A DNA stretch of 64,000 bases from a phage. Location: the sequence record PQ338057.1, one strand, 5' to 3'. The notes below the pieces were generated by a model. The model was not told the DNA's origin, did no database searches, and saw nothing but the letters and a program-made list of their open reading frames with translations. Of this stretch, positions 12,715 to 28,096 are shown one piece after another (within the stretch, counting starts at the first letter, position 1; every line of letters starts with the position of its first letter). Position numbers and translations under genes: made by a program.

Positions 12715-13521
12715 ATGAGTGTTATGAATCCAATAAGTTCTAATATATTTAATGCTGAATTTTTAAACACCCCGGCAGCGGCACTTGCCGCATGGATTTC
12801 CATTATTGGAGCTGTTATAACTTTGGTGACGATAGTTATAAGAGCACTATTCAAATATAGAAAATCTCATGATGTAATTTTGAAAAAATCAGGAATACCT
12901 GCGTTTATATTAAATTTTTTTCTTATACGAATATCATTAAAAAGGCTGCCTACTATCACATGGGCTGAAAAATCAATCACGGTTCTCTTTTCACTTCTTT
13001 TTTTGTGTGCAATTTATATTTTTGGTCCAGTTTTCATCCAAGCCATTAGAACCCCACCAAATAGCACATTGCTTTATTGGATAAAGTCCGGTGAATCATT
13101 TTATATGTCAAAAAAACTGGCGACTGCAGCTACAATATTAACCACTCCTGATTGGGAAATATCAAAAGATGATTGCGAAGAGTCATCCTCTGCCAGTACA
13201 GAGAAGTACAAATCATTAACTATCGAACATAAAGAAATTCTTTGTAAACTACTAACCACTGATGAAGGGAATACTTACATTGATGAAGAAGTCAAGAATT
13301 TCGTTAAAGACAAATTCTTTATCTATTCCTTTGCCCCAACAACCATATTTATTCTATTATGGATTTCTTTGGGTTTTATACTGACCATTCACTATTCTAA
13401 AAAAGTTAGGAAATATATTCTGACTGAACAAAAAAATGCAATTCATTGGGCATATGGTGAATTCAAGACAGAAGGAATCTATTCAATATATCACGAGTTA
13501 GAACGTAAGACTCACCATTAA
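12715..13521 (+). CDS. AT-rich multi-pass membrane protein of unknown function (cargo gene between S and V)
   Basis: 268-aa ORF with GGTGG RBS; about four hydrophobic helices; markedly lower GC than flanking tail genes; opposite strand to the late operon. Confidence 0.7.
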   Translation: MSVMNPISSNIFNAEFLNTPAAALAAWISIIGAVITLVTIVIRALFKYRKSHDVILKKSGIPAFILNFFLIRISLKRLPTITWAEKSITVLFSLLFLCAIYIFGPVFIQAIRTPPNSTLLYWIKSGESFYMSKKLATAATILTTPDWEISKDDCEESSSASTEKYKSLTIEHKEILCKLLTTDEGNTYIDEEVKNFVKDKFFIYSFAPTTIFILLWISLGFILTIHYSKKVRKYILTEQKNAIHWAYGEFKTEGIYSIYHELERKTHH

Positions 13522-17655: not shown

Positions 17656-18680
17656 TGGGAAAGAGTAAGAAAAACCGCGCTGCGGCGACGAACCAGATCC
17701 AGCATAAAAACCAAACTTCAGCCGAAGCATTCAGCTTCGGTGATCCCGTTCCTGTTCTGGACCGCCGCGAATTACTGGACTATGTGGAATGCGTAAAGAT
17801 GGACCGCTGGTATGAGCCACCCGTAAGTTTTGACGGACTGGCGCGAACATTCCGCGCCGCCGTACACCACAGTTCACCGATTGCAGTAAAGTGCAACATT
17901 CTGACCAGCACCTACATCCCTCACCCGCTGCTCAGCCAGCAGGCGTTTTCACGTTTTGTGCAGGACTATCTGGTTTTTGGTAACGCCTACCTGGAGAAAC
18001 GCACGAACCGATTCGGTGAAGTTATCGCCCTTGAGCCTGCGCTGGCAAAATACACCCGACGCGGATTAGACCTAGATACCTACTGGTTTGTGCAATACGG
18101 CATGACCACGCAGCCGTATCAGTTCACGAAAGGCAGCATTTTTCATCTGATGGAACCGGACATCAACCAGGAGATCTACGGCCTGCCCGGCTATCTTTCT
18201 GCCATCCCATCCGCCCTGCTCAACGAGTCCGCCACGCTGTTCCGCCGAAAGTATTACATTAACGGTAGTCATGCAGGCTTCATCATGTACATGACCGATG
18301 CCGCGCAGAACCAGGAAGATGTGAACAACCTCCGCAATGCGATGAAAAGTGCCAAAGGCCCTGGCAACTTCCGCAACCTGTTTATGTACTCGCCTAATGG
18401 TAAAAAAGACGGACTTCAGATTATCCCGTTGTCAGAAGTCACAGCGAAGGATGAGTTTCTGAATATCAAGAACGTGAGCCGTGATGACATGATGGCGGCA
18501 CACCGCGTGCCGCCGCAAATGATGGGAATTATGCCTAATAATGTCGGGGGGTTTGGGGATGTGGAGAAGGCTAGCAAGGTATTCGTAAGAAACGAATTGA
18601 TGCCCCTGCAGAAACGATTGCAGGAACTAAATAACTGGTTGGACGAAGAAGTGCTCAATTTTTCAACCTATGAGCTTTAG
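17652..18680 (+). CDS. portal protein gpQ
   Basis: 342-aa ORF; P2 gpQ-like. Confidence 0.85.
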   Translation: MMGKSKKNRAAATNQIQHKNQTSAEAFSFGDPVPVLDRRELLDYVECVKMDRWYEPPVSFDGLARTFRAAVHHSSPIAVKCNILTSTYIPHPLLSQQAFSRFVQDYLVFGNAYLEKRTNRFGEVIALEPALAKYTRRGLDLDTYWFVQYGMTTQPYQFTKGSIFHLMEPDINQEIYGLPGYLSAIPSALLNESATLFRRKYYINGSHAGFIMYMTDAAQNQEDVNNLRNAMKSAKGPGNFRNLFMYSPNGKKDGLQIIPLSEVTAKDEFLNIKNVSRDDMMAAHRVPPQMMGIMPNNVGGFGDVEKASKVFVRNELMPLQKRLQELNNWLDEEVLNFSTYEL

Positions 18681-18688
18681 TTTTAAAA

Positions 18689-18708
18689 CGAAGACCATTA
18701 GGTCTTCG
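18689..18708. terminator. hairpin cgaagacc-atta-ggtcttcg between convergent Q and the retron RT
   Basis: Perfect 8-bp inverted repeat overlapping the RT stop codon. Confidence 0.4.
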
Positions 18709-19660
18709 CTTTATTTAAAGGGTTCTTTCCATATTTTTTTTCTAATTTGCTAATATAAGTTATTAATCTCCTATGGCTTTTTGAATCCACACTTAAAATA
18801 AATGACAACCATCCCCTAACGTGTTCTATCTCAGAAGACTTACCGCAAAATATATGATGTATCTTTGCTCTAATTTCTTTATATTTTTCTCTACCTATCC
18901 CAACTTTCTCTTGTGAAATAACTAAACCTGTAACTTTCCTCTGACTACGAGGCCCACTAATACAAGTTTTTTTTGAGTTAATAACCAATCCTTCACTTGG
19001 GATTATAGAAAATAAAAAATCACGTGCTTTAACAACCTTTTTCATAGACTGTGCAGATAAGGTGAGATCATCGGCATATCTCGTATATATCAAGCCCCGA
19101 CTACCTGCATAACCCTGAATACGATAATCAAGTTTAGAACATATTAGATTAGCTAATTTAGGTGATGATGGAGCACCTTGTGGTAGCAGATTTTTATAAC
19201 AACATATTTTTGTCAAAACTGAAGATATTAGTCGATTATAACCAAGAGAATGGAACACTCCAAAAACTTTGTTAGCAGTTAAACTTGGGAAAAAATCCTC
19301 CAAATCAATATTCAGTATAAAGTTTGCCCCAATATGCGGGGTAGCATTATTCAAAATAGATTGGTGCTTTTCAAATCCAATAGAAAAAGGAGATGACGAC
19401 AGTTTATCTAAAATGTTACGTAGAACCCATCCTTGTAAGGCTTTAAGTTCTCGAGAAGGTTGGTAAATGGTTCTCATTCTCTTCTCTGGGCCTTTCTTTT
19501 CTACAGTGTAGATCCTATAGCGAAAATCAGCTGTATAGATTAACAACCGAAGTGTTTCAACAGATATGCGAGTCGCCTTAGACATGTCATGCAAATTGTT
19601 CATGACAGGTAGGCCGAGATTTCTCAATCTAAAAGTGTTCAAATATTCAGCGGATTTCAT
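18698..19660 (-). CDS. ret: retron reverse transcriptase (Retron-Eco1 / Ec86 RT), 320 aa
   Basis: YADD active-site motif (RYADDLTLS); sequence MKSAEYLNTFRLRNLGLPVMNNLHDMSKATRISVETLRLL recalled as the Ec86 RT; immediately downstream of msr-msd. Confidence 0.95.
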   Translation of the reverse strand: MKSAEYLNTFRLRNLGLPVMNNLHDMSKATRISVETLRLLIYTADFRYRIYTVEKKGPEKRMRTIYQPSRELKALQGWVLRNILDKLSSSPFSIGFEKHQSILNNATPHIGANFILNIDLEDFFPSLTANKVFGVFHSLGYNRLISSVLTKICCYKNLLPQGAPSSPKLANLICSKLDYRIQGYAGSRGLIYTRYADDLTLSAQSMKKVVKARDFLFSIIPSEGLVINSKKTCISGPRSQRKVTGLVISQEKVGIGREKYKEIRAKIHHIFCGKSSEIEHVRGWLSFILSVDSKSHRRLITYISKLEKKYGKNPLNKAKT

Positions 19661-19666
19661 GAAAGT

Positions 19667-19841
19667 TGCGCACCCTTACGTCAGAAAAAACGGGTTTCCT
19701 GGTTGGCTCGGAGAGCATCAGGCGATGCTCTCCGTTCCAACAAGGAAAACAGACAGTAACTCAGATTCAATGCAGGATGCCGAAACAACATCCAGAGGTT
19801 GACCTTAATGATAAACCTCTCGCTAAGGGTGCGCATACGGA
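19667..19841 (-). ncRNA. msr-msd: retron msr-msd non-coding RNA (Ec86): msr about 19749-19841, msd about 19681-19766, a1/a2 inverted repeats at 19824-19835 and 19667-19678
   Basis: Minus strand reads ATGCGCACCCTTAGCGAGAGGTTTATCATTAAGGTCAACC...; plus strand 19681-19766 reads TCAGAAAAAACGGGTTTCCTGGTTGGCTCGGAGAGCATCAGGCGATGCTCTCC..., the msDNA-Ec86 sequence as recalled. Confidence 0.9.
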
Positions 19842-20746
19842 ATCTTATCATAGTTAAATGTTGATTTTCTACGGTTTTCAAAATTCATAATCTCAAGCCG
19901 CAATCGGTCAAGTGTCTTTCTATCAAAGACGCTCCTAACATAGCTAGCCCCCAAAGCAGTGACCTGATAACCATCAGTCATTTGAAGTATTTTTCGTTCA
20001 TTTATTAGACGAGAAACAACGGATCTAACAATAATTTTAGATAAAACATCATCTTGCTTTATCGCTTTAAAAGCTAGTTCACACAGTGTGCGGTAGTTGA
20101 CACTATCCAGTAAATAGATACAAGGCAATAGAAACCGCTCTGCGTATAATATATTTCCAATATCTTTTGATACTTTATTTTCTTTCCTAACCTTCTTAAT
20201 AGATGCCATTAATTTTTTATATAATCGTAATTTTCTGGCAACATCAATAGATGAATCACACATTTCTTTTAGTTCATTTGAACTACAACGCAAAACAGAT
20301 TTTGAATTAAACTTACGCAACAGGCGAACAGGACCATAGTTAATAAAGCTACGTTTTGATTTAAATTTTGCATCTTGAATGCAAATCAACTTTCTCCTTA
20401 AGTTTTCATTATTAGAGAACGCACCAAGCTCTGTGAAAGACCCCGGACTTTCAGGAAATAAAATTATTACATCGACAGCTTCAGCCAGAATATTTTCTAA
20501 ACTTAAAAGGCTATGCTGCCCTTGACCAGCCAAAAGATCATCAAATAGATCTTCTGGATAAAATATATCAACATCACTGAACTTTGCTAAAAATTGTGAT
20601 AATTGATGACGCCAAGATTGATGATTAGCAACGTCACCACCACATAGAAAAATGGTTATTTTAATATTAGCTCCTCGATAGAAGCCTTTCTTTGTGAGAT
20701 GTCCTATAAGCTGTTGTTGCTGCTCATCGGTAAATTTTTTATTCAT
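19823..20746 (-). CDS. retron effector, nucleoside 2-deoxyribosyltransferase-like (NDT-like) protein, 307 aa
   Basis: Upstream of msr-msd on the same strand, stop codon inside the msr a1 region; Rossmann-like motifs (IFLCGGD, ILFPESPGSFTELG); AT-rich; NDT assignment from recall of Retron-Eco1, not verified. Confidence 0.75.
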   Translation of the reverse strand: MNKKFTDEQQQQLIGHLTKKGFYRGANIKITIFLCGGDVANHQSWRHQLSQFLAKFSDVDIFYPEDLFDDLLAGQGQHSLLSLENILAEAVDVIILFPESPGSFTELGAFSNNENLRRKLICIQDAKFKSKRSFINYGPVRLLRKFNSKSVLRCSSNELKEMCDSSIDVARKLRLYKKLMASIKKVRKENKVSKDIGNILYAERFLLPCIYLLDSVNYRTLCELAFKAIKQDDVLSKIIVRSVVSRLINERKILQMTDGYQVTALGASYVRSVFDRKTLDRLRLEIMNFENRRKSTFNYDKIPYAHP

Positions 20747-21218
20747 AATCTCCCCGCTTTTTTTTCTACTTTATACATCAAGTTATGAATAGATCCAATC
20801 TCCATACCACATGGCGCGCGCTCGTATCCCCGCCACGCCTGCCCGCTTTATGCAGTGGTTTTCATGCACATGCATAACATGAGCAAAAGCCCGCCAGTTC
20901 TGGCGGATCTGAGCAAAGACGATCCTCAATCGATCATGCGATTTCATGCAGCATAGTCATGCACTGTCAAGGAAGTGAAAATCCGTATCTGAATGGCCAC
21001 TTGAAAAACGGATCATACGGGTTTACAAAGATGAATGTTCGCTGTGAACGGGAAGCGGAAGTTAACTTTCAGATAACATAATCCATATGCACGAGAACCT
21101 CTAAAATAGAATGGGACACCTAAGCGGGGTACTTACAACGATTCTTTCCATATTCACAGTTAACACTCTGTTTGGCGTATTTTTATTCAAATAGCAAACA
21201 CCAATAAAAGGAGTTTCC

Positions 21219-21554
21219 ATGAACAATATTCCCCCTATACCACAGTTAGGAATTTATGTCTCAAAAATCGATCCCACCCTACGTATCACTGTAACCGATG
21301 TTGATATTGTTGATGGTGAGGATGATTCTCCTGATGATGAATTGTTTTATTTAGTCCACTGGATCGAGGGGGAAGATGAAAGTGATATGACAGCAATGGG
21401 ATTTGAGCTAGACCCAGTAGAGTGGCAGGCTTTCGTTGAATCTGAGCAATTAGTGTTTGAGCGTGATCCGTACATGGATTCAATCCCCGAAAATTCAAAC
21501 TTGGCAAAGATTCGGGATTTTCTCATGAAGACTAAACAGAATGATCATTCGTAA
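21219..21554 (+). CDS. small acidic protein of unknown function (111 aa)
   Basis: AAAGGAG RBS 7 nt upstream of ATG; very D/E-rich; located in the accessory slot next to the retron. Confidence 0.6.
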   Translation: MNNIPPIPQLGIYVSKIDPTLRITVTDVDIVDGEDDSPDDELFYLVHWIEGEDESDMTAMGFELDPVEWQAFVESEQLVFERDPYMDSIPENSNLAKIRDFLMKTKQNDHS

Positions 21555-21746
21555 GTGTAAGCATCCATCAGGAAAATGGTTTTGTAAGTGAATCATCAAC
21601 TTTTAGAGAGTCTCAGACACTCCCACTTCTGCTTCTGACACAAAGCGGACGATCACTTATCAAAATAACCGCCCACCTTACGCCTTATTTCACTCATTGC
21701 CCAAACTAGCCCCCATCAGAATGAATCCTCCTGGGGGCAACATTTC

Positions 21747-21980
21747 TTAATGCAGCCAGCTGTCGTCCTCCCACACCTTCTGCATAATTTTCATCACTTG
21801 TTTTCTTTCTTCATCCAGTTGCAGTCCGGTTAGTTCCACACCGTTAGAGCTACCTTTGCGAATGCGAATTACCGTTTTGGGATACAGGGGGCGCAGATTG
21901 CGGTAAAGCTCGGATTCAAGGGCGTCCAGGGTAGACTGGCTAATCTTCTGCTCTTTATCGATCATTATTTCAATGCGCAT
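21747..21980 (-). CDS. DinI-family protein (77 aa from MRIEIMIDKEQ)
   Basis: Resembles DinI (MRIEV...ALE.EL...QETWE..DW); GAGGTGA RBS; start at internal Met of track ORF 21747..22052. Confidence 0.7.
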   Translation of the reverse strand: MRIEIMIDKEQKISQSTLDALESELYRNLRPLYPKTVIRIRKGSSNGVELTGLQLDEERKQVMKIMQKVWEDDSWLH

Positions 21981-21990
21981 AAAAGTCACC

Positions 21991-22179
21991 TCAGCTGATG
22001 ACATCCATTGAGCGGTTGTATTCGTGGCTTCTGATTTTTGCCATGAGTTCATCAGTCAATTCAGAAACCCACTGCAGAGCCAGCCCCTTCTCTTCATCAC
22101 TACACTCACTAGCCGCTACAAGCTTAAGAAAAAAATCAATGCGCTGGAGCTTCAAAGACTCCAAAAAATAGTCCTGCAT
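21991..22179 (-). CDS. small protein (62 aa), first gene of SOS-controlled operon; possible Tum-like antirepressor N-terminal part
   Basis: AGGAGG RBS 6 nt upstream; LexA box overlaps the promoter; stop is 10 nt before the DinI-like start. Confidence 0.55.
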   Translation of the reverse strand: MQDYFLESLKLQRIDFFLKLVAASECSDEEKGLALQWVSELTDELMAKIRSHEYNRSMDVIS

Positions 22180-22219
22180 CTTTCCTCCTATGACACCAAA
22201 ACAATACTGTATACATAAC

Positions 22220-22239
22220 CACTGTTTATATTTACAGTA
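22220..22239. promoter_or_regulatory. LexA (SOS) box CACTGTTTATATTTACAGTA
   Basis: CTGT-N8-ACAG with AT-rich spacer, about 40 bp upstream of the 22179 start codon. Confidence 0.7.
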
Positions 22240-22331
22240 TATAATAATCTTACTGATGTAAAACGTTTTTTTACGTTCATCGGCCTGATATGCCTGGTAT
22301 TATTAAGAGCACGAATTGTCAACCCGCGTAA

Positions 22332-24752
22332 TTAATACAGGTTCCGCCACTTATCATCTTCCTTCAGACGCTGGTTCCGATAGAAGATACGCAGGCCTGC
22401 TCCTGACGGAATACTGCCGCCGCGAAGGAGCAAATCGACTTCTTTCTCGCTGCCATCAAATCCCCTGGACTTCAGTTCATAGACGAGCTGCTGTCGCTGA
22501 TGGTCTGTAATTCGCTGTTTGTAGTCTTTACGCCGTTTCGGTTTCACCTGGCGTAACCTTGCAGCCAGTTCCCGGCGCTCTTTTTTGCTCATACTGTGCA
22601 GGTAATTGTGCAACTCCTTGTCATTCATACGGGTAATATCCGTTCTGGAGTCCCCATCAGCTGATTTGTCTTTCCCTTGTTGGTTCAAATTTTCAGCAAG
22701 GGGACAGTTATTGCCACGAGTCCAAGGGGCGCAAGCGCCCTGGTCGGCTGCCGCCTCCTGAACGTCAACGGCCTTACGAACCATTTTCCACTTCACCGCA
22801 TGAGTGCAGATCTTGCCCTCTGCAATGGGTGACCAGATGCCATAAATACGAATACCGTGATCGCCATATGCGGTCGGTTCTTCGTTGATTTCATAAGCAG
22901 TTCTGATGAGGTGATATTTGCGGGGAACCAGTACGCCGCCCTGCTTCATGATGTAGGTGGCAAAACAACCAGCATCAGCAGCAGCCAGGATTGCATCAAG
23001 ACGCGGGTTATCCAGTACCGGCGCACCTGCTTTTTTGTCACCCTGTTGCCTTGCCGCCTGACCAGCCAGCAATCGCAGTTCACGGTAAGCCTGACGCCCC
23101 GGAATGCCAAAGAAGCGGAATTGCTGAACACGATGCAGAGACGCCCAGGCATTAACGTATTCAGCGTTATCACGCAGGGATTTACCCGTTTCCTTGCTGA
23201 TCTCCCCAGCCAGACCACGCCCGTCAATGTTCTTACTGATGTATTTCGCGATATAGCTTGTTGGCGTACCTTTGCGCGGGTTTATCAGCTCAGACTTAAA
23301 GCGTGGTCCCGTGTTATTGCCCAGCTCCTCGCGGTCTTCACGGATGGCAAACTTACGCAGTAATGCAGTGATGGCGCGGCGGTCTTTTTTACGCATGAAA
23401 CACATGAGATGCCAGTGCACAGTACCGTCATGATGCGGCTCAGCTACCCGCACGCCATACCAGCGCAACTCGGCTTTATGCATAGCCTTACGAAATGCAG
23501 CAAACATGCCGACCAGATAATCGCTACTTTGTCTTACCGTCGCGTTTGTCCAGGTCGGGTTTGGTCTGCCGTTATTGAGCGTGGAATGGAAACGCGACGG
23601 ACAGGTGATAGTGTAGAAAACGGCACAGTCACTGCGCATTTCCGCGATAAGCTCCAGACCTTTAACACAGGCCATCATCTCATTGCGGCGATGCGCCGGG
23701 TTGCTGCTGCTGGCGTTTACCACATCTTCCATATCCAGCGTGTCGCCGTCTTCGTTCACCAGTTCATGAGAACGAAAAAACTCCAGCGACTTACGGCGCT
23801 GCTCACGTTTATGCATCACGGCTTCATAGCTGACATAGGGGGATGCTTTTTTGCTGACCAGGCAGACAGCACGCAACTGCTCTTCCCGCCATTCGCAACG
23901 CATCTTCCATAATTTCCGATACCACCAGTCGGCACACAACATACGCGCCAGCGAACCCGGGATGAGTTCATAGAGCACTGGTTTGCGGCGGTTTATTTTC
24001 CGACGAAGTTTCTCAAACGCAGGCGGGATAACATCCAGACGCAGGGTTTCCGCTGCCACCTTTTCCCATGTCTTGCGGATTTCTTCTGGCTTAACGTCAT
24101 CGGTGGCATACAAATCACCACAAGCGTCCTCAAGACACATGCTCATATGCGCTGCTACCAGGGTGGACAGGCGTTTCACCTGATCCTGGCTCATTTCAGG
24201 CAGGATCAGCAGACCCTCCAGCCCTTGATGGCTTGCCATAAAACGGAAAGAAACAGATAGCTGACTGTCACGTACACAATCCAGTCGCTCCAGACATGGC
24301 TTAATCGTCTCACGCAAATAGCGGGAATAAGCCTTTGGCCTGCCCAGGCTGCTGAAGTATTCAATACGTTGCATCAGCGGCTTGCTGATATGGGAAGGCT
24401 GGGCGTTTACGTCCGCCAGAATGACCATGTCCGGATTAAAACGCTGCTGCTCATGCGCCAGCTTTGCCCGGCTAATGAGCTTATCCTGCTCCATTTCGCG
24501 CTGGACAGGATCACGGGATTCATTAAAGAAATAACGCTCCCAGACCTGCTCACTCAGTGCCTCGCGGCGCAGTTGTTCCTGCTCGTTATCGGCAGCGTAC
24601 AGAGTGATCAGGTTTGAAAGTGCAGACTCCGGCGCAACTTCCGCCGGGTCCAGATAAGGGTTAATGGCCTTTTTCGAGCCGTTCCATGAAAATGCTGCGG
24701 CGGCCTCGTTAAAGCCGCTGCAATAGTTCATATCGTCATGACTCATACACAC
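22332..24752 (-). CDS. replication initiation protein gpA (rolling-circle nicking endonuclease)
   Basis: 806-aa ORF; P2/186 A-like, with HUH-like motif (TVHWHLMCF) and tyrosine region ([13 protein letters not shown]). Confidence 0.85.
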
Positions 24753-25600
24753 ACTCCGTACACGGCAGAACTATCCACGCCACGCGAAGGATCAAATCCC
24801 AACCAGCAGCTCGGCCCGGAAACAGCAATGATTTCTGTTGCAGATTTACCCTCGCCAGCTGACACGCCGATGCTGCGTTTTGCCTTGATATAGTGGTGAG
24901 TAAAATTGCGATACAGCGAACGAATCAGGGATGTGTCATTGTTAGAAACAATGACCGGATGTCCTTCTGATGACCGATGTTCAAGAATGGATGCCAGGTG
25001 ATACTGGTCATCTTCAGTGAAACCATCAGTGTGATAGCCGGAAAACGTACCGTCATACGGCGGATCGCAATACACCACATCCCCCACCTGCAGCATCGCC
25101 AGCGTTTCATCAAAGCTCGCGCAGATAAACGTTGCCCGCTGGGCTTTCTCTGCAAATGCGCGAATTTCTTTTTCAGGGAAATACGGATTTTTATAATTAC
25201 CGTAGGGAATGTTGAAATACCCGCTCTTGTTATAGCGACATAAACCACGGTAACCGTGACGATTGAGATACAGGAAATATATCGCCTTCATGAAATCAGT
25301 AATTTCAGTTGAGTAATTAAACTCCTGTCTTATGTTGTAATAAGCCAGCTCACTGTTTGCTTCCTCAAATAAAACTTTGGCACGAGATATAAACGCTTCG
25401 CAATCAGCGGCAATCTTTTTATAGAGGTTGATTAAATCAGGATTAATATCCGCAACCAGATAGCTGGGGTAATCCGTCGCCATCATCACAGCACAAGAAC
25501 CCGCGAAAGGTTCAACCAGTCGCGGGCCAGCAGGAAGGTATTTTTTCAGTTCGGACATAATGGCGGTTTTATTACCCGCCCATTTCAGGATGGTGCTCAT
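24743..25600 (-). CDS. DNA adenine methyltransferase (Dam-like, N6-adenine MTase)
   Basis: [12 protein letters not shown]-terminus; DPPY catalytic motif; start overlaps upstream gene (ATGA), stop overlaps gene A start. Confidence 0.85.
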
Positions 25601-25824
25601 ACAGCACCTCCGTTGTAATGTTTGCCTTTCAGCTCTGCGATTTCCTGGCAGGTAATGCAAAGCTGCACTCCAGGAATGGCACGGCGGCGTGCTGGCGGAA
25701 TTGGCGCTTCACACTCAACGCAAAGCACGCGGGACACGCCCGGCGTTTTGGCACGGGCAGCACGGATATGGCGTTGGCGTTCTTCTTCAACGCGCTGCTG
25801 TACGAGATCCATTGCATCAGCCAT
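25597..25824 (-). CDS. DksA/TraR-family C4 zinc-finger protein
   Basis: CVECEAPIPPARRRAIPGVQLCITCQ C4 motif; 75 aa. Confidence 0.7.
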   Translation of the reverse strand: MADAMDLVQQRVEEERQRHIRAARAKTPGVSRVLCVECEAPIPPARRRAIPGVQLCITCQEIAELKGKHYNGGAV

Positions 25825-26063
25825 CAGTGGATCTCCTGCGCTTCGTTCTGGATTGCTTCAGCAGTCACACGCAGCAGTTCTGCCGCTTCGACGTGGTTTA
25901 GCTGGCGGGAGGTGATATGACACGCCAGGCTATCGAGGCGAGCAGCCATTGCTTCAGCCCTTGCCCGGCGTTCTTCCAGACGAGCCTCTGTCAGTAAAAG
26001 ATTAAGACCTGCATCATCCGGTCCGGTTTTGGTCGTGAGGGTTTCAATATTACGCATAAGCAA
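25824..26063 (-). CDS. hypothetical phage early protein (79 aa)
   Basis: ORF in early operon, overlapping start/stop arrangement. Confidence 0.4.
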   Translation of the reverse strand: MLMRNIETLTTKTGPDDAGLNLLLTEARLEERRARAEAMAARLDSLACHITSRQLNHVEAAELLRVTAEAIQNEAQEIH

Positions 26064-26124
26064 TTCTCCTGAATTTAGATAAAGGGATGCCCGGCGGGTT
26101 TACGCCATTAATTTCATTAGTTGG

Positions 26125-26466
26125 TTAATTCGGCATGGTTAGCCGTCTGGGAAATAAGCTCACCACTGCACGAAAATGATTCATTGCTTTAATCAACTCC
26201 CGCTTTTCGTCAGTGGTCAGCTCATTAATGCTGATGCTATGACGTTCAGCTGGAATTTTTGCCATAAAGAATATGGCAGCCAGTGCCCGTTTATTTTGTT
26301 CATTATTGATATCCCGTGGATCACGCATATCTTTAATAAACCGCTCAAGCTCTGACTCAATATTCAAACCAAAAACTTTCGCCCTTAACTCCGCAATATG
26401 ATTAAGTCCATTCAGGCGTTCACCGGGTCTTAATGGAACAGTCGCCGCAGCGCCTTCAATAGCCAT
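26125..26466 (-). CDS. hypothetical phage early protein (113 aa)
   Basis: ORF in early operon. Confidence 0.4.
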   Translation of the reverse strand: MAIEGAAATVPLRPGERLNGLNHIAELRAKVFGLNIESELERFIKDMRDPRDINNEQNKRALAAIFFMAKIPAERHSISINELTTDEKRELIKAMNHFRAVVSLFPRRLTMPN

Positions 26467-26630
26467 TTGTTCCCCCGTTTTTTCGTAGATAGTTCTGCCA
26501 GCAATTCATCTTGTGAACGGCACGGATGCCAGCGTTTTCCATCCTCACCCATGATCCAGCCGTGACCGTAGTGCATTGCCGGGCTTTGCTTTACCAGCAG
26601 CGATGCAAATGATGGTTCTTTCGTCAGCAT
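26430..26630 (-). CDS. hypothetical small phage protein
   Basis: ORF downstream of the CII-like gene; start uncertain. Confidence 0.3.
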   Translation of the reverse strand: MLTKEPSFASLLVKQSPAMHYGHGWIMGEDGKRWHPCRSQDELLAELSTKKRGNKWLLKALRRLFH

Positions 26631-26637
26631 AAGCACC

Positions 26638-27153
26638 TCACAGCAAACCGAATGAAGCACCGAGGCCAGTCACGGTATCAACTGCACTCGCCATCGCAGG
26701 GTTAGCCTGTAAACGGGCCTGCAATGAAACAGCAGCCAACGCCATCAGTCGTGTTACAGAGTTAATGCTGCTGATAGCATCACGACGACCTGCACTGGTT
26801 TTTACATCGCCAGATACCGCACCTGCAGCAACACGCCCGATCTCTGCGGTTGCACTCATGACGTAATGTGGCAGTTTCTCTTTTGCCACCTCATTAATCG
26901 GTACGCATGGCAGGCAGTGAATCTGAGCCAGAAAACCATCTACCAGCGTTGAATCTTCAGTCAGATCGGTAAGCAGCCAGATTTCTGGTGCGGTTAATAA
27001 ATGAGGTTGCGCTGGGTTCAACTTGTTCCGCAGAATCTGCACATTCATGCCAGCACGTTCTGCCAGTTGCACCAGGTTGTGGCGCAATGCGAATGCACGA
27101 CAGGCTTCATCAAAATGTGGATGTTTGGAAACTTGGTAATCAAACATGGTCAA
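26638..27153 (-). CDS. CII-like early regulator (186 CII-type)
   Basis: 171 aa, second gene of the early operon after the Apl-like gene; N-terminal HTH-like region. Confidence 0.55.
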
Positions 27154-27520: not shown

Positions 27521-28096
27521 GTGACCATGAATTTGGAGAAAGGCGGACGAGGCGCTATAGAGCGCATGGTAGAAGCTTATGGATTCAAGACTCGACAGGC
27601 GTTGTGCGATCATTTAGGAATCTCTAAAAGTACACTCGCCACACGCTACATGCGTGACTCATTCCCAGCAGAATGGGTAATCCAGTGCGCCCTTGAAACA
27701 GGCACCTCGCTTAATTGGCTCACAACCGGGCATGGTTCAAAGCAAACTTCAGGTAATACAAATACTATGGAAGTTGCTAAATATGTATTATCTGATGGGG
27801 CCTTGTGTGAAGACGGTTTTTATATTTTCGATAGAGAATTTCTACCGTCGGCATTCAAGAATCTTTTTGTAATCACAGATAATAATTCTGAATTTATTTG
27901 TGATAAGGAATTTGATGATATACGTGATGGTAAATGGGTAATAAGTATTGATGGCGAAATAACGATCCGTGACATTACTCGTTTACCCGGTGGAAGAATC
28001 TTCGTCGAGGGTGGAAATAGAGCCTTCGAGTGCAAGATAGAAGATGTTGAAATAATTGGGAAAATTATAAGTTTAACAATTAAGTACGTTAGGTAA
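27521..28096 (+). CDS. CI-like immunity repressor (186 CI-type)
   Basis: 191 aa; N-terminal HTH (ALCDHLGISKSTLATRY); position upstream of int. Confidence 0.6.
   Translation: MTMNLEKGGRGAIERMVEAYGFKTRQALCDHLGISKSTLATRYMRDSFPAEWVIQCALETGTSLNWLTTGHGSKQTSGNTNTMEVAKYVLSDGALCEDGFYIFDREFLPSAFKNLFVITDNNSEFICDKEFDDIRDGKWVISIDGEITIRDITRLPGGRIFVEGGNRAFECKIEDVEIIGKIISLTIKYVR

Follow-up and report, generated by a model that had tools for sequence, protein, structure and literature searches.

The closest described relatives of the locus reported here are the tum genes of phages 186, PSP3 and Fels-2. The 186 antirepressor Tum acts on a CI repressor that is non-cleavable (PMC3121763) and has been found to bind CI and block its binding to the operators (Shearwin et al. 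1998, cited in PMC3121763). In the 186 record a promoter, p95, lies after gene A and has a putative LexA site starting with the -10 hexamer, tum carries both halves of the protein fused in 146 aa with DinI-like truncated products from internal starts, and orf97 follows tum; the truncated Tum is annotated there as 'modulates SOS induction'. In both Fels-2 and PSP3 tum is split in two, and according to a personal communication the antirepressor activity resides in the upstream PSP3 gene (cited in PMC3121763). The PSP3 record describes the product of tumA as 'UV induction of prophage' and that of tumB as 'similar to dinI'. A study of Salmonella TA100, which carries Fels-2, revealed a change in expression of the operon STM2726-STM2727-STM2728 upon exposure to the mutagen MX, with STM2727 up 5.5-, 11.1- and 14.8-fold and showing the lowest p-value in its table of LexA-regulon genes (PMC2225428). 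A LexA-controlled DinI homologue paired with a small antirepressor directed against a non-cleavable repressor is also known from the dinI-gfoA operons of Gifsy-1 and Gifsy-3 (PMC3121763), but these are lambdoid phages and the gene order is the reverse, with dinI first.

The window analysed here, by which is meant the whole 64,000-nt stretch of phage DNA in record PQ338057.1, corresponds to a region of E. coli B of the REL606 type with 100% identity. It holds a defective P2/186-like prophage inserted between rcdA and ybjL, which was named Rybb*B in a comparative genomics study and is the carrier of retron Ec86 (PMC3032704). Past the stop codon of the gpA-like replication gene a gap of 152 nt leads into two small ORFs on the minus strand, which very probably form the SOS induction operon (tumA-tumB) of this defective 186/Fels-2-type P2-like prophage of E. 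coli B. The module is an orthologue of the described 186/Fels-2-type induction switch and is therefore already known. What can be added is modest: a colicin-type double operator (leaving aside priority with respect to the primary Fels-2 literature), a split that is ancestral and under selection, the 'hypothetical protein' labels under which tumA is filed and, as one mildly novel lead, a mismatch between the divergence of TumA and that of CI. Neither the double operator nor the occurrence of a single TumA alongside many types of CI changes the 186 paradigm, to which both are small additions. The features of the operon and its upstream neighbour are as follows.

24752 to 22332, minus strand: gene for a gpA-like replication protein of 806 aa
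22257 to 22262, minus strand: putative -35 hexamer TTTACA, counterpart of that of 186 p95, with conserved spacing
22220 to 22239, minus strand: distal LexA box, reading CACTGTTTATATTTACAGTA on the plus strand and TACTGTAAATATAAACAGTG on the coding strand
22224 to 22205, minus strand: second, weaker LexA box (proximal), CAGTGGTTATGTATACAGTA, which shares 5 nt with the distal box
22184 to 22189, minus strand: AGGAGG, the ribosome-binding site of tumA, separated from the ATG by 4 nt and kept in relatives
21991 to 22179, minus strand: tumA-like gene (ORF1), 62 aa, predicted antirepressor
21988 to 21992, minus strand: GAGGT, the ribosome-binding site of tumB, which overlaps the stop codon of tumA and lies in the 3' arm of a hairpin at 22002 to 21985
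21747 to 21980, minus strand: tumB-like gene (ORF2), 77 aa, DinI family
21709 to 21738, minus strand: GC-rich hairpin after tumB with a 7-bp stem, GCCCCCA/UGGGGGC

LexA operators in Enterobacteria are 20-bp palindromes of the form TACTG(TA)5CAGTA with an invariant CTG-N10-CAG. The distal box has CTG-N10-CAG and differs from the consensus TACTGTATATATATACAGTA at three positions; it is the sole match with three or fewer mismatches in the 64 kb, there was none in 100 dinucleotide-preserving shuffles, and the stricter pattern CTGT-W8-ACAG also occurs just once in the window. The proximal box, with GTG-N10-CAG and five mismatches to the consensus, resembles the proximal boxes of colicin operators and is kept in all five of the Fels-2-type promoters. 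The sequence-only reading of this locus had put a near-consensus SOS box at 22220-22239, which is confirmed; it had overlooked the second, overlapping box at 22205-22224. Its description of a 62-aa ORF with a strong ribosome-binding site, followed after 10 nt by an ORF of the DinI family, is correct (22179 to 21991 and 21980 to 21747), and the same can be said of its comparison of the whole with Tum, given the relation of ORF1 to the N-terminal half of Tum and of ORF2 to the DinI-like half, the position after gene A and the presence of a 186-type CI.

The putative -10 hexamer, TACTGT, makes up the opening six bases of the distal box and is a poor match, and a generic scan for sigma-70 promoters detected none at the locus. 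A TTTACA hexamer precedes TACTGT by exactly 17 nt in five promoters whose spacers are divergent in sequence, those of the window, Fels-2, SopEPhi, Yersinia MLG42 and Klebsiella phi4.1, while 186, PSP3 and ESSI-2 have TTCACA, TTCCCA and TTTACA, respectively, at 18 nt and ESSI2_ev015 has TTCACA at 17 nt. This conserved spacing, together with the annotated layout of 186 p95, which that of the window resembles, suggests a putative SOS promoter overlapping the LexA box. When the 170-nt regions preceding tumA homologues were compared among nine phages from several Peduoviridae genera, each had a LexA box with one to four mismatches to the consensus at the same position, and all nine also had TT(T/C)(A/C)CA 17-18 nt ahead of the TACTGT with which the box starts. 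The spacer and flanks were divergent, and the CTG-N10-CAG register was held across all nine of these diverged promoters.

Double operators were defined as pairs of boxes overlapping in such a way that their 16-mers share one base and their 20-mers five. The corresponding pattern, CTGT-N9-CAGTGG-N8-ACAG, was found at the module in both BL21(DE3) and REL606 and in four Fels-2-type phages, and it also occurred at the loci of ColE1, colicin Y, colicin R, a ColE1-like plasmid and pesticin. It was absent from the 186, PSP3 and ESSI-2 types; both 186 and PSP3 have a single LexA box where the window has a double one. A search of plasmids with the 56-nt operator region recovered small Col-type plasmids and Yersinia pPCP1, and the matches immediately precede the genes for colicin Y, colicin R and pesticin, an arrangement that is the same at ColE1 cea. 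The proximal box of the window is identical to that of colicin Y at 20/20 positions and the proximal box of Fels-2 is identical to that of ColE1 cea, again at 20/20. The two overlapping boxes at 22205-22239 are a predicted double LexA operator of the colicin type, and the 35-nt layout is common to the double boxes of ColE1 cea, colicin Y, colicin R and pesticin and to the Fels-2-type tumA promoters. In colicin genes such double boxes hold two LexA dimers, and the lethal function is very tightly repressed and induced late (PMC2994835). The colicin operators control a bacteriocin, whereas the operator in the window precedes a prophage antirepressor gene, and the boxes of ColE1 lie downstream of the -10 hexamer, whereas in the window the distal box appears to contain it.

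A separate observation is that the 35-nt operator has nearly the same sequence as the operators of pesticin (on pPCP1), colicin Y, colicin R and ColE1 cea, even in the spacer that is not contacted (loci compared: L014 1501-1546, L015 1501-1543, L016 1501-1548 and L018 5063-5093). This likeness between tumA, colicin and pesticin operators may reflect either shared ancestry or convergence.

The start of ORF1 lies 40 nt downstream of the distal LexA box. Pairwise BLASTP of ORF1 against 186 Tum gave no alignment, so homology is seen at the profile level only, and ORF1 falls into none of the Pfam families. When 1.8 billion representative proteins were scanned in full with HMMER, a family of stand-alone proteins of 50-75 aa emerged, and hhalign matched the profile of this family to a profile of homologues of the N-terminal part of 186 Tum with a probability of 96.2% and an E-value of 2.5e-9, pairing residues 2-44 with residues 2-44 over 43 columns. 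ORF1 belongs to phrog_698, which 186 Tum itself matches at 2.4e-5, and it also matches phrog_8554 and phrog_1993, the families of 186 Tum and PSP3 TumA. Judged from these profiles, ORF1 is a remote homologue of the antirepressor N-terminal half of 186 Tum. An AlphaFold2 model (mean pLDDT 88) predicts a two-helix hairpin with helices at residues 2-23 and 28-61; Foldseek matched the model to nothing in the PDB beyond generic helical hairpins (best E 0.83), and PDB sequences searched by profile with ORF1 gave no hit. In all RefSeq and E. coli records among those listed, tumA is labelled 'hypothetical protein'. The gene is the likely induction trigger of a prophage type that is present in about one fifth of complete E. 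coli genomes.

ORF2 covers the whole of the Pfam DinI profile (PF06183, positions 1-63 of 63) with an E-value of 6.6e-23 and 81.3 bits against a cut-off of 24.2, and it matches the structure of E. coli DinI, 1GHH, at 2.7e-6. It is 41% identical to residues 71-145 of 186 Tum, the DinI-like half, and 100% identical to the DinI-family protein of Fels-2, for which the Fels-2 record notes similarity to 'TumB [PsP3]'. By analogy with E. coli DinI and with the annotation of truncated Tum in the 186 record, TumB would bind RecA filaments and modulate the SOS response. The gap between the two ORFs is 10 nt (21990 to 21981). A small hairpin at 21985-22002 on the minus strand, GTCATC...GGTGAC followed by TTTT, spans the tumA stop codon and the Shine-Dalgarno sequence of tumB; this hairpin is also present in Fels-2 and is absent from the corresponding junctions of SopEPhi and Klebsiella phi4.1. 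It was the single terminator-like site found in a terminator scan, and could serve either to couple translation of tumB to that of tumA or as a weak attenuator. The hairpin after tumB has a T-poor tail, UAGUUUGGG, and folding of the 71-nt stretch 21690-21760 was not significant (z -1.3). Its position is that of the partial terminator t95a of 186, and a weak or partial terminator is a possible reading of the sequence.

The Fels-2 module is a near relative of that in the window. The 590 bp comprising the promoter and both genes (STM2728/STM2727, the latter appearing as STM2726.1 in the phage record) are 96.8% identical to the window, with TumA 96.8% and TumB 100% identical at the protein level. 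The two modules have the distal LexA box in identical form, the double-box arrangement and the location behind gene A in common, and their proximal boxes differ at two positions. Differences from Fels-2 are the CI, which is only 42% identical, the downstream region, where the orf97-like STM2726 of Fels-2 is replaced in the window by a convergent ORF (phrog_17127) and the retron Ec86 cassette, and the setting of the window module in a defective prophage of E. coli B. The Fels-2 prophage has reportedly been blamed for the lethality of lexA-null mutations (the title of Bunny et al. 2002). PSP3 shares with the window the two-gene split behind a LexA box and, by its annotation, the order of A followed by tum, and PSP3 TumB aligned over its full length with much of ORF2. 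Its TumA belongs to the 186-like subfamily phrog_1993, whereas that of the window belongs to phrog_698, and tumA and tumB of PSP3 are in the same frame with a stop codon between them, whereas the genes in the window are offset by +1.

That the palindrome should be a chance or structural feature, such as a terminator of gene A or a site for a phage protein, is extremely unlikely. A small A/T-rich hairpin does lie just upstream of it, but a match with three mismatches never arose in the shuffles, the register is common to nine diverged promoters, the proximal box is identical to experimentally defined colicin operators and the Fels-2 orthologue is induced by DNA damage. It is also very unlikely that the two ORFs are a decaying pseudogene, the remains of a 186-like tum broken by a frameshift or a stop codon. 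Such a history is suggested by 186 Tum being one 146-aa protein containing both halves, by the otherwise defective state of the prophage and by the frame of ORF2, which is open for 25 codons upstream of its ATG. Against it, neither ORF lacks a start codon or a Shine-Dalgarno sequence of its own, and both are under purifying selection, with dN/dS of 0.06-0.11 for ORF1 against four relatives and about 0.07 for ORF2 at dS of up to 1.3. Among relatives the two start codons are offset by 1, 0 or 2 (mod 3), and the open extension upstream of the ORF2 ATG is not conserved, varying from 1 to 25 codons with the 25 being that of the window. This purifying selection and the variable offset rule out a frameshifted tum. 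Viable phages carry the two-gene form (Fels-2, PSP3, SopEPhi and many Klebsiella phages), and the module was found in 1125 of 5426 complete E. coli genomes (about 21%), in 1083 of them at a coverage of at least 80%. No protein fusing the ORF1 subfamily to DinI was apparent in 67 representative clusters, as judged from hit lengths and matched regions. On this comparative evidence the two ORFs are the natural two-gene form of tum. The sequence-only reading had offered this form and a frameshifted tum side by side; the former is upheld, also by the tumA and tumB annotation of PSP3, and the latter is contradicted by the comparison of reading frames with relatives, in which the window has the offset of +1. 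A further candidate, a TumA-TumB fusion made by programmed frameshifting, was rejected on the same comparisons of dN/dS, frame offset and extension.

Two phages of the ESSI-2 type, Escherichia phage ESSI2_ev015 (L006 1030-1420) and Cronobacter phage ESSI-2 (L007 1030-1400), also have a LexA box and a tumA homologue after gene A, the homologues being 41-49% identical. No DinI-like gene is annotated in either, and none fits the short gap before the next gene, which is on the opposite strand. The occurrence of tumA without a DinI gene in these two phages indicates that the antirepressor half can stand alone.

The sequence of events expected for the tumA-tumB operon as an SOS induction switch is the following. 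In an undamaged cell LexA would occupy the double operator at 22205-22239, covering the -10 hexamer and the start of transcription past gene A. Upon DNA damage, cleavage of LexA stimulated by RecA would free the promoter, and a single transcript would give two proteins. TumA, as a 62-aa helical hairpin, would bind the 186-type CI, which does not cleave itself, and take it off its operators, and loss of CI would derepress the early lytic operon (apl/excisionase, cII, fil, dam and A). TumB, the 77-aa product, would meanwhile bind RecA filaments and modulate the SOS signal. The prophage would then be derepressed and might excise and replicate, but no virions would follow, as the genes for capsid and tail sheath are absent. 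In this scheme LexA binding, antirepression of the CI in the window and interaction with RecA are expected by analogy with 186, PSP3, Fels-2 and E. coli DinI. The Fels-2 operon, which is induced by damage, has an identical distal LexA box, so transcription that responds to damage is well supported, and it is for transcription of the operon alone that the earlier suggestion of a cryptic prophage still sensing DNA damage holds good. The literature searched yielded no experiment on the operon in E. coli B, and neither TumA/TumB nor the accessions of the RefSeq proteins led to anything further.

The presumed target of TumA is the following.

27527 to 28096, plus strand: 186-type CI immunity repressor

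This protein has both domains of the 186-type repressors, Phage_CI_repr (PF07022, 2.8e-33) and Phage_CI_C (PF16452, 8.5e-27), and no S24 autocleavage domain above threshold (Peptidase_S24 at 16.7 bits against a cut-off of 23.3). It is 32% identical to 186 CI and 42% to that of Fels-2. With TumA 97% identical to that of Fels-2 and CI only 42%, the pairing of TumA with the CI of the window is an assumption. The repressors were compared among six phages and prophages in which TumA is at least 96.8% identical (the window, L012 and L019-L022), and identity within this group was 58-81% for the HTH domain and 26-56% for the C-terminal domain. Near-identical TumA proteins thus accompany strongly diverged CI proteins, which indicates that the tum module and the immunity region reassort. 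In view of such reassortment, a rival reading is that recombination left the tum module and the immunity region mismatched, with an SOS-regulated operon whose one remaining role is to modulate the SOS response of the host, its action on CI having been lost. This is unlikely: every phage with a tumA homologue that was examined has a 186-type CI, the HTH domains are 58-81% identical within the group having the Fels-2-type TumA compared with about 40% to the HTH domain of 186 CI, which fits a conserved surface for contact with TumA, and the strong purifying selection on tumA across different CI backgrounds argues for continued function. Possible explanations of the pattern are that TumA recognises a conserved CI surface, most plausibly on the HTH domain, or that some of the pairings are non-functional. 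In broader terms the pattern implies an antirepressor of broad specificity or else frequent exchange between induction and immunity modules.

An extension of the preferred reading, that of an SOS induction switch acting on CI, is that a nearly invariant TumA acts on many diverged 186-type CI repressors through the HTH domain and can induce P2-like prophages in trans, with the double operator serving to restrain it. This is tentative and should be regarded as rather doubtful. If true, the SOS response in E. coli B would drive a prophage that lacks a capsid and carries retron Ec86 into derepression, excision or replication, the copy number of the retron or the fate of the cell would be tied to DNA damage, and the deletion from cII to A in BL21 would have abolished this hazard. 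In REL606 and BL21, both derivatives of E. coli B, the module is intact beside retron Ec86, so DNA-damaging treatments could derepress the defective prophage.

In the annotation of REL606, which is identical in sequence, the integrase, the 186-type CI, an apl-like gene, cII, fil, dam and A are intact. The late region has fared differently: the scaffold gene is followed directly by a lysozyme fragment and lysB, the usual capsid and holin genes are missing there, the tail sheath and tube genes are absent from the prophage and gene D is truncated. The absence of the capsid and tail-sheath genes means that the prophage cannot make virions. Comparison of BL21(DE3) (L004, 29859-31304) with REL606 (L005, 12492-17307) revealed a deletion of ~3.7 kb in the former, extending from inside cII to inside replication gene A (window region 24743-27153). 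It takes out fil, dam and other early genes that are present in the window and in REL606, and both strains retain CI and the tumA-tumB operon.

The genes downstream of tumB and one gene further into the late region are the following.

21219 to 21554, plus strand: ORF of 111 aa convergent with tumB, matching phrog_17127, a family without an assigned function, at 2e-70, and a hypothetical protein in REL606
20746 to 19823, minus strand: NDT-like effector with an HTH domain, 307 aa, of the retron Ec86/Eco1 cassette
19660 to 18698, minus strand: reverse transcriptase, 320 aa, of the same cassette
12715 to 13521, plus strand: gene of the DUF6216 family (REL606 annotation)

The 111-aa ORF has no match in Pfam, and a search of 18000-23000 with Rfam gave no match at all, that is, not to the msr/msd RNA of the retron either. 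The retron cassette (18698-20746, minus strand) occupies a variable slot between tumB and the portal gene, which in 186 holds orf97 and in Fels-2 STM2726. The DUF6216-family gene lies in the opposite orientation between a virion morphogenesis gene and baseplate gene V, and represents further cargo of the late region.
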